Below, piece by piece: positions 20,443 through 20,503 of a DNA stretch of 64,000 bases. Numbering within the stretch: position 1 is the stretch's first letter; the number at the start of each line of letters is the position of its first letter. Origin of the DNA: Escherichia coli O157:H7 (GTDB lineage Bacteria; Pseudomonadota; Gammaproteobacteria; Enterobacterales; Enterobacteriaceae); NCBI RefSeq assembly GCF_013167455.1, contig NZ_CP038328.1; one strand, 5' to 3'. The notes beneath the pieces are model-generated. The model made no database searches. It was not told the DNA's origin and saw only the letters and a list, made by a program, of their open reading frames with translations. The position numbers were made by a program, and so were the translations under genes.

Positions 20443-20503
20443 GTCCTGCACCAGGACGTATCCCTTAATTGTGCATAGTCGCAACAGCATGCACAATTAA
20501 GGG
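20443..20503. promoter_or_regulatory. palindromic elements in the yajQ/panE divergent promoter region
   Basis: Perfect 15-bp inverted repeat CCCTTAATTGTGCAT (20462..20476) / ATGCACAATTAAGGG (20489..20503) with a 12-nt spacer, preceded by GTCCTG-CAC-CAGGAC (20443..20457). Confidence 0.45.

Follow-up and report, generated by a model that had tools for sequence, protein, structure and literature searches.

A palindrome, probably an insert, between the divergent genes yajQ and panE of Escherichia coli coincides with a published RNase III hairpin and carries a putative mirror-image promoter pair

The genes yajQ and panE of Escherichia coli O157:H7 lie back to back on either side of a short spacer, which was analyzed here as part of a 64,000-nucleotide stretch of contig NZ_CP038328.1 (the window, to which all positions refer unless another numbering is named). 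The coding sequence of yajQ occupies 19890–20381 on the minus strand (163 aa, ATG at 20381) and that of panE 20549–21460 on the plus strand (303 aa, ATG at 20549), leaving 167 bp between the two divergent genes; over 801 bp, the DNA here matches O157:H7 strains of E. coli with 100% identity. PanE is the ketopantoate reductase of pantothenate and coenzyme A synthesis, and YajQ is a nucleotide-binding protein, homologues of which have been described as c-di-GMP effectors in Xanthomonas. A repeat search of the window located a large palindrome at 20459–20506, whose left arm (TATCCCTTAATTGTGCAT, 20459–20476) and right arm (ATGCACAATTAAGGGATA, 20489–20506) form a perfect inverted repeat of 18 nt each, 100% complementary, around a loop of 12 nt (20477–20488). 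A first-pass annotation of this DNA had given the arms as 15 nt and the end of the element as 20503; the repeat is real, with those 15 nt being the inner part of the 18 and that end falling 3 nt short, and the distances given there to the two start codons (46 bp to panE, about 80 bp to yajQ) are right. The second, short palindrome that it had seen alongside is likewise present, namely GTCCTGCACCAGGAC at 20443–20457 with a 6-bp stem and a 3-nt loop.

Among perfect inverted repeats with loops of 3–20 nt, the large palindrome is the longest in the whole window; the next-longest have arms of 11 nt and are terminator-like, and in 30 first-order Markov simulations the longest arm of a window ranged from 8 to 12 nt. 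As RNA, either strand folds with −27 to −30 kcal/mol, corresponding to z-scores of −7.2 and −7.6 for the two strands relative to dinucleotide shuffles. The yajQ-sense hairpin comprises 18 contiguous pairs plus two more across the loop, i.e., a duplex of the roughly two helical turns expected of an RNase III substrate, and it appears in both the minimum free energy and the centroid structure of the full yajQ leader (279 nt folded). The element is unannotated by RefSeq in MG1655, and a scan of 19800–21000 against Rfam 15 (E ≤ 10) returned nothing relevant apart from one spurious snoRNA match.

The palindrome is nevertheless an already known feature and no orphan regulator site: it is the RNase III hairpin in the long yajQ leader that was published by Gordon, Cameron and Pfleger (2017; mBio 8:e00128-17; PMC5371410), and the earlier remark that no regulator had been assigned to this site was out of date. 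Comparing MG1655 with an rnc deletion strain by RNA-seq coverage, with reads mapped to NC_000913.3, these authors listed a site “Intergenic (panE-yajQ) 444573” with 2–3 reads in the wild type vs. about 96 in the rnc deletion (ratio 32–48), which was among the 11 sites verified with purified RNase III and assigned by 5′ RACE to a long stem that they had predicted (PMC5371410). By coordinate mapping, 444573 of NC_000913.3 is the C between TTGTG and ATGCTG and equals window position 20491, within the stem; the K-12 spacer differs from that of the window at two bases, neither of them in the palindrome, and the published site and the palindrome are one and the same object. Transcripts of both strands were cut by RNase III in vitro, and a hairpin on the panE strand was also predicted (Gordon et al., 2017). 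The RNAs used were T7 fragments corresponding to 20336–21100 (panE sense) and 20687–19950 (yajQ sense), which cover the whole spacer with arbitrary ends and show that either strand is a substrate, not which natural transcript bears the hairpin; the libraries were TruSeq RNA and maybe unstranded, so that the in vivo strand is not fixed by those data alone.

Functionally, the half-life of the yajQ mRNA was about 6 min in the wild type vs. about 3 min in the rnc mutant, which was read as stabilization of the message by cleavage in its 5′ UTR, with the leftover 5′ structure proposed to shield the cut mRNA (Gordon et al., 2017; PMC5371410). Consistent with RNase III acting positively on yajQ, the YajQ protein was at 0.56-fold in an rnc-14 strain by TMT proteomics (Huang et al., 2020), and a later review still lists the mechanism of yajQ stabilization as unresolved. 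In yajQ-sense RNA, the small hairpin lies 1 nt downstream of the large one. Comparable cases are the 5′ UTR of adhE as well as the ahpC and pflB sites of the 2017 study, where a long stem, located in a leader or between genes, is likewise cut by RNase III and the mRNA becomes stabler or better expressed. In adhE, cleavage frees an occluded ribosome-binding site, and an analogous relief of yajQ was considered and not adopted: the predicted duplex between the antisense of the panE ribosome-binding site and the yajQ ribosome-binding site (−15.0 kcal/mol vs. −11.1 ± 2.6 for shuffles) was matched by 43 of 500 shuffles, and the yajQ Shine-Dalgarno sequence is predicted to be paired in short transcripts, too. 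The 2017 study describes the same hairpin on both strands and is silent on the hexamers within the arms, the transcription starts at the palindrome edges, the phyletic spread of the element and the promoter from which the cleaved transcript originates.

Transcription start sites (TSSs) were taken from the plus-strand entries of the Cappable-seq list published by Ettwiller et al. (2016), which uses U00096.2 numbering (window position = 464288 − U00096.2 position, checked on both start codons). Among these entries are three comparable primary starts in the yajQ sense, at 443640 (+) (window 20648, relative read score 35.9), 443827 (+) (20461, score 43.2) and 443882 (+) (20406, score 63.7). On the yajQ strand, a −10-like hexamer precedes each of them by 7–8 nt. 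The proximal hexamer, TATTAT (20414–20419, minus strand), belongs to the block GGTATTATGC, which hardly varies among 25 Enterobacteriaceae (TATCAT in one sequence); the distal one, the near-consensus TACAAT (20655–20660, minus strand), precedes its TSS by exactly 7 nt and lies inside panE as a coding-embedded promoter, and the yajQ leader of 267 nt that begins at 20648 is antisense to the start of panE. This leader contains the hairpin, transcripts from 20406 lack it, and the whole hairpin is found only in RNA from the distal start, which accounts for about a quarter of the yajQ signal in these Cappable-seq data (35.9/142.7). As listed in Table S1 of Huang et al. (2020), a promoter of Conway at 443641 agrees with the distal start and the double-stranded RNA (dsRNA) locus MS-115 of Lybecker spans 443638–443836; transcription through the duplex region is thus supported by the Cappable-seq start at 443640, the Conway promoter at 443641 and MS-115 reaching 443836. 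The supplement of Romero (2014) contains no entries on yajQ/panE.

The remaining start, 20461, lies at an outer edge of the palindrome. On the plus strand, TTGTGC (20469–20474) and CACAAT (20492–20497) are separated by 17 bp and face panE (20469–20497, reported panE transcript start at about 20505), and the mirror copy at 20468–20496 on the minus strand, whose CACAAT is the complement of 20468–20473, faces yajQ. Exactly this TTGTGC-N17-CACAAT motif occurs on both strands here and nowhere else in the window, with 0.01 occurrences expected per window. The minus-strand copy was spotted ahead of the TSS look-up, and 20461, 7 nt after its CACAAT, then fitted. Mirrored about the palindrome center, 20461 becomes 20504, and the boundary of the overlap with the panE operon in the RNA-seq operon map of Conway, as reproduced by Huang et al. 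(2020), is 443783 (U00096.2), i.e., window 20505 in the last bases of the right arm; the two edge starts would accordingly lie 43–44 bp apart at the outer edges of the palindrome. The layout is that of a sigma-70 promoter (16–18 bp spacing, 5′ end about 7 nt past the −10), the start on the panE side being this boundary near 20505, taken at second hand. Of the 12 consensus positions, the hexamers match only 7, TTG, A-11 and T-7 among them, and a generic promoter scan did not flag them. While other stem positions vary, the ATTGT and ACAAT cores do not change between the element of Escherichia and that of Citrobacter, which fits either a promoter or a stem core.

Taken together, the sequence and the mapped 5′ ends suggest that the arms form two overlapping sigma-70-type promoters, divergent and mirror images of each other. 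Each −35 overlaps the −10 of the opposite promoter, and the two binding modes of the polymerase should therefore exclude one another. Transcripts starting at 20461 or about 20505 would lack the hairpin; the former begin 4 nt from the small hairpin. MS-115, in the version tabulated by Huang et al. (2020), reaches window 20452 and implies that some panE-sense RNA begins further upstream. The arrangement resembles the bidirectional promoters of Warman/Grainger in its symmetric sequence, its divergent starts and the expected exclusion of binding modes; however, that class uses one shared −10 with a TSS distance of 18 (also 10 or 23) bp, whereas the palindrome has two separate −10s and TSSs 43–44 bp apart and thus falls outside it. 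A shared −10 of the Warman/Grainger type could be present elsewhere in the spacer: the block at 20411–20420 (GCATAATACC/GGTATTATGC), the most conserved part of the spacer in the 25 Enterobacteriaceae aligned, reads TATTAT towards yajQ and CATAAT towards panE on the other strand.

Of 5426 complete E. coli genomes, 5424 contain the 56-nt element, each at a single locus; what was counted as “2 places” in a genome is one locus hit on either strand, as a control with the K-12 fragment showed. In 5351 of these 5424 genomes, the query was at least 99% identical. The palindrome is identical and perfect in E. albertii, which shares the spacer length of 167 bp. The two species differ at five spacer positions, none of them in the palindrome, although this is not significant (P for 0 of 5 about 0.18). 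The small palindrome of E. albertii reads GGAT for GGAC, which weakens its stem. E. fergusonii was sought via the PanE cluster, among whose listed members only E. coli, Shigella and E. albertii appeared. One E. coli strain, 13TMH22 (NZ_CP019256.1), carries an IS3-family, IS1203-like element inside the right arm (window 20494–20496) with a 3-bp CAA target duplication, which splits the hairpin and the putative panE −10.

Outside Escherichia, an imperfect 51-nt hairpin occurs in the 174-bp spacer of the Citrobacter freundii complex (C. braakii, C. werkmanii, C. youngae and strain FP75). The palindrome is absent from Salmonella Typhimurium (125 bp), C. amalonaticus/C. farmeri (113 bp), Enterobacter, Leclercia, Kluyvera and others; spacers measure 113–144 bp in most genera compared (113–125 bp in Salmonella, C. 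amalonaticus/farmeri, Enterobacter and similar), and the divergent yajQ/panE arrangement itself is conserved across Enterobacterales. The poor conservation among close relatives that the first-pass annotation had named as a refutation thus applies in part, since the element is lineage-specific.

An alignment of these relatives places the extra DNA directly after a conserved GCGCTATACT, a position that reads TATAAT in Salmonella and looks like the ancestral −10 of panE. We infer an insertion of about 50–60 bp limited to Escherichia and the C. freundii complex, going back to a single ancient event. The small palindrome GTCCTGCACCAGGAC is homologous over 15 nt to the ancestral GCGCTATACTAGGCT of Citrobacter and Enterobacter, which contains the panE −10 TATACT; Escherichia lost this TATACT exactly where the perfect palindrome exists. 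With the older −10 mutated away, the palindrome-borne promoter probably took over and replaced the ancestral panE promoter in Escherichia. A further change specific to the lineage concerns the distal yajQ promoter, as its TACAAT stems from a TGT codon of panE, a synonymous difference from TGC; among 15 sequences, TGT was present in all three Escherichia and one contig labelled C. freundii, most others having TGC.

The variants also allow a view on the strand on which the hairpin may have been maintained. Across seven distinct, closely related sequences, 87.2% of the stem cells are paired in the panE sense vs. 75.2% in the yajQ sense; at five stem pairs, the variation goes through G.U, confined to the panE strand, and a single pair shows full compensation. 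Without exception, the Citrobacter and metagenome variants fold more strongly in the panE sense (−16 to −21 vs. −7 to −16 kcal/mol), because several positions are G.U there and C.A on the other strand. Within the limits of a small and closely related sample, these data suggest an origin of the element as a hairpin of the panE leader, located downstream of TATACT, and its ancestral role as RNA may not have been the one known for yajQ in E. coli.

A separate structure of the spacer is a small hairpin in the panE leader (20518–20538, plus strand; CACCCG-gagtggttg-CGGGTG), directly preceding the Shine-Dalgarno sequence of panE. Enterobacteriaceae in general keep this hairpin through compensatory changes, e.g., as the arm pairs CACCTG/CAGGTG, CACTCG/CGGGTG, CATTCGC/GCGAATG and CATCCGC/GTGGATG, and RNAalifold on 19 genera predicted six pairs, four of them changed on both sides. 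The hairpin is not in Rfam, and we know of no function described for it.

On balance, we consider it probable that an insert of about 50 bp, specific to this lineage, gave rise to the palindrome in a divergent control region and that it acts at both the RNA and the DNA level. At the RNA level, as published experiments show, read-through transcripts fold into a hairpin of 18–20 bp that is cut by RNase III. The main hairpin-bearing RNA, and presumably the in vivo substrate, is the yajQ mRNA that starts at 20648; the cut yajQ mRNA is about twice as stable, with the small hairpin at 20443–20457 as a candidate for the protective 5′ structure proposed by Gordon et al. (2017). At the DNA level, the TTGTGC-N17-CACAAT of each strand would drive a start at the opposite outer edge (20461 and about 20505). 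A more specific version, which we put forward tentatively and hold to be somewhat less than an even bet, is that of a dual-use module: mutually exclusive divergent promoters would have entered the spacer in an ancestor shared by Escherichia and the C. freundii complex and would have ousted the old panE promoter in Escherichia, and the same sequence, as RNA, would serve as an RNase III gate only on transcripts of the third, upstream yajQ promoter.

Alternatively, the insert could be a relic devoid of selected function, with RNase III cutting and edge TSSs as by-products of a long, AT-rich palindrome that happens to be transcribed. Most Enterobacteriaceae manage with a 113–144 bp spacer that lacks the element, the comparison of E. 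coli with E. albertii yields no significant conservation signal, the effects on yajQ are only about 2-fold, and one clinical strain tolerates the IS3-family insertion in its right arm. This reading nonetheless appears unlikely to us in view of the near-uniform sequence in E. coli and the still perfect palindrome in E. albertii, the loss of the ancestral panE −10 in the perfect-palindrome lineage only, the Escherichia-specific synonymous change that creates the distal TACAAT, and the Citrobacter variants, which keep the stem by G.U-compatible changes on one strand.

A second alternative concerns the nature of the substrate, since the locus is also a case of overlapping divergent 5′ UTRs in an excludon-like arrangement, in which the distal yajQ RNA overlaps the first ~100 nt of panE plus its leader. 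According to the compiled loci, dsRNA from this overlap was captured twice, as MS-115 (Lybecker et al., 2014) and as p19 cluster S-46 (Huang et al., 2020), and RNase III could in vivo act on the intermolecular duplex of yajQ- and panE-sense RNAs instead of the hairpin. Both MS-115 and the p19-captured cluster (443437–443776; Huang et al., 2020, Table S1) cover the 5′ region of panE, p19 duplexes of 21–22 nt were sequenced up to 443777, and the RNA-seq of Gordon et al. (2017) was maybe not strand-resolved. However, single transcripts of either strand are cut by the purified enzyme, at 5′ RACE sites in the predicted stem, and the p19 cluster stops 6 nt short of the palindrome (443782–443829 in U00096.2); no p19 duplex starts or ends in 4438xx. 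Ending before the palindrome fits a panE mRNA that starts at the palindrome edge. We therefore regard a purely intermolecular substrate as improbable and describe the MS-115/S-46 dsRNA as intermolecular, ending just before the palindrome as captured by p19, and the palindrome as an additional, intramolecular substrate.

The first-pass annotation had offered two interpretations, a structured 5′ leader and the operator of a dimeric regulator. The former is borne out by the published RNase III site and the TSS inside panE, whereas the latter fares poorly. The literature searched assigns no transcription factor to the palindrome, and the only protein lead is a gSELEX-chip peak of phosphorylated NtrC in the panE-yajQ spacer (W3110 443,846, 41% intensity; PMC8743547), obtained in vitro and at a resolution of 100–300 bp. 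A perfect NtrC half-site TGCACCA is present in the small palindrome (20448–20454), and the arms carry TGCACAA. The 17-bp NtrC box TGCACCAnnnTGGTGCA, on the other hand, has no occurrence with up to three mismatches in the spacer, and sigma-54-like −24/−12 elements around the small palindrome have the wrong spacing as judged by eye. Matches to the palindrome half-site TTAATTGTGCAT elsewhere in the window are no commoner than chance. To our knowledge, arms of 18 bp with a 12-bp gap are unlike any known operator and far larger, and the element is missing from Salmonella and most relatives. An operator role of the palindrome or of its small neighbor, e.g., for NtrC, is in our view very improbable.

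Membership in a family of dispersed repeats or miniature mobile elements (REP/BIME, MITE) was rejected and has next to no credibility. The palindrome does look like a discrete insertion into an older spacer, and it shares with REP/BIME elements an extragenic position and a stable RNA hairpin; REPs, however, are GC-rich, multi-copy and usually located at 3′ ends, whereas the palindrome is AT-rich, single-copy and situated between divergent starts. The multi-copy family at many loci that the first-pass annotation had considered is at odds with the single locus per E. coli genome, and there are no copies at unrelated loci: plasmids and phages hold none, the sole “plasmid” matches being E. coli records of megabase size. 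When metagenomes were scanned with the Citrobacter-type arm, 118 stretches matched; among the 80 loci examined, 9 proved to be real elements, and each of these sits in the yajQ-panE spacer. The remaining 71 are chance matches in unrelated sequence with no inverted partner, mostly one conserved, coding-looking stretch. A different insertion of about 45 bp near the same place, which might speak for mobile repeats, is found in the Enterobacter-like MAG OH_SBB_50 (locus about 2330–2500) and contains CCTTCCTGCAACTCGAATTATTT; a near-identical string lies upstream of an antisense TSS near dxs in K-12 (Huang et al., 2020, Table S1). This suggests that CCTTCCTGCAACTCGAATTATTT is a dispersed small repeat and that this spot of the spacer is prone to insertion; the string is absent from the window and matches nothing in Rfam. 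An intrinsic terminator or attenuator, for which a strong stem-loop in a leader would speak, was likewise rejected as hardly conceivable, as the stem is AT-rich and not followed by a T/U run on either strand, a terminator scan reports the small palindrome only, and weakly, and the flanking genes are divergent with nothing ending here.

The striking palindrome left unannotated by RefSeq hence has a published biochemical explanation, and the pursuit of an orphan operator is unwarranted. The readings as a promoter pair and as an insertion are modest, testable additions to a known site, whose known effect sizes are modest as well (about 2-fold). If they are true, mRNAs from the three yajQ promoters would differ in their fates, and the locus would provide an example of how a palindromic insertion of 50 bp may rewire a conserved divergent region by bringing in two promoters, displacing an older one and creating a target for RNase III.
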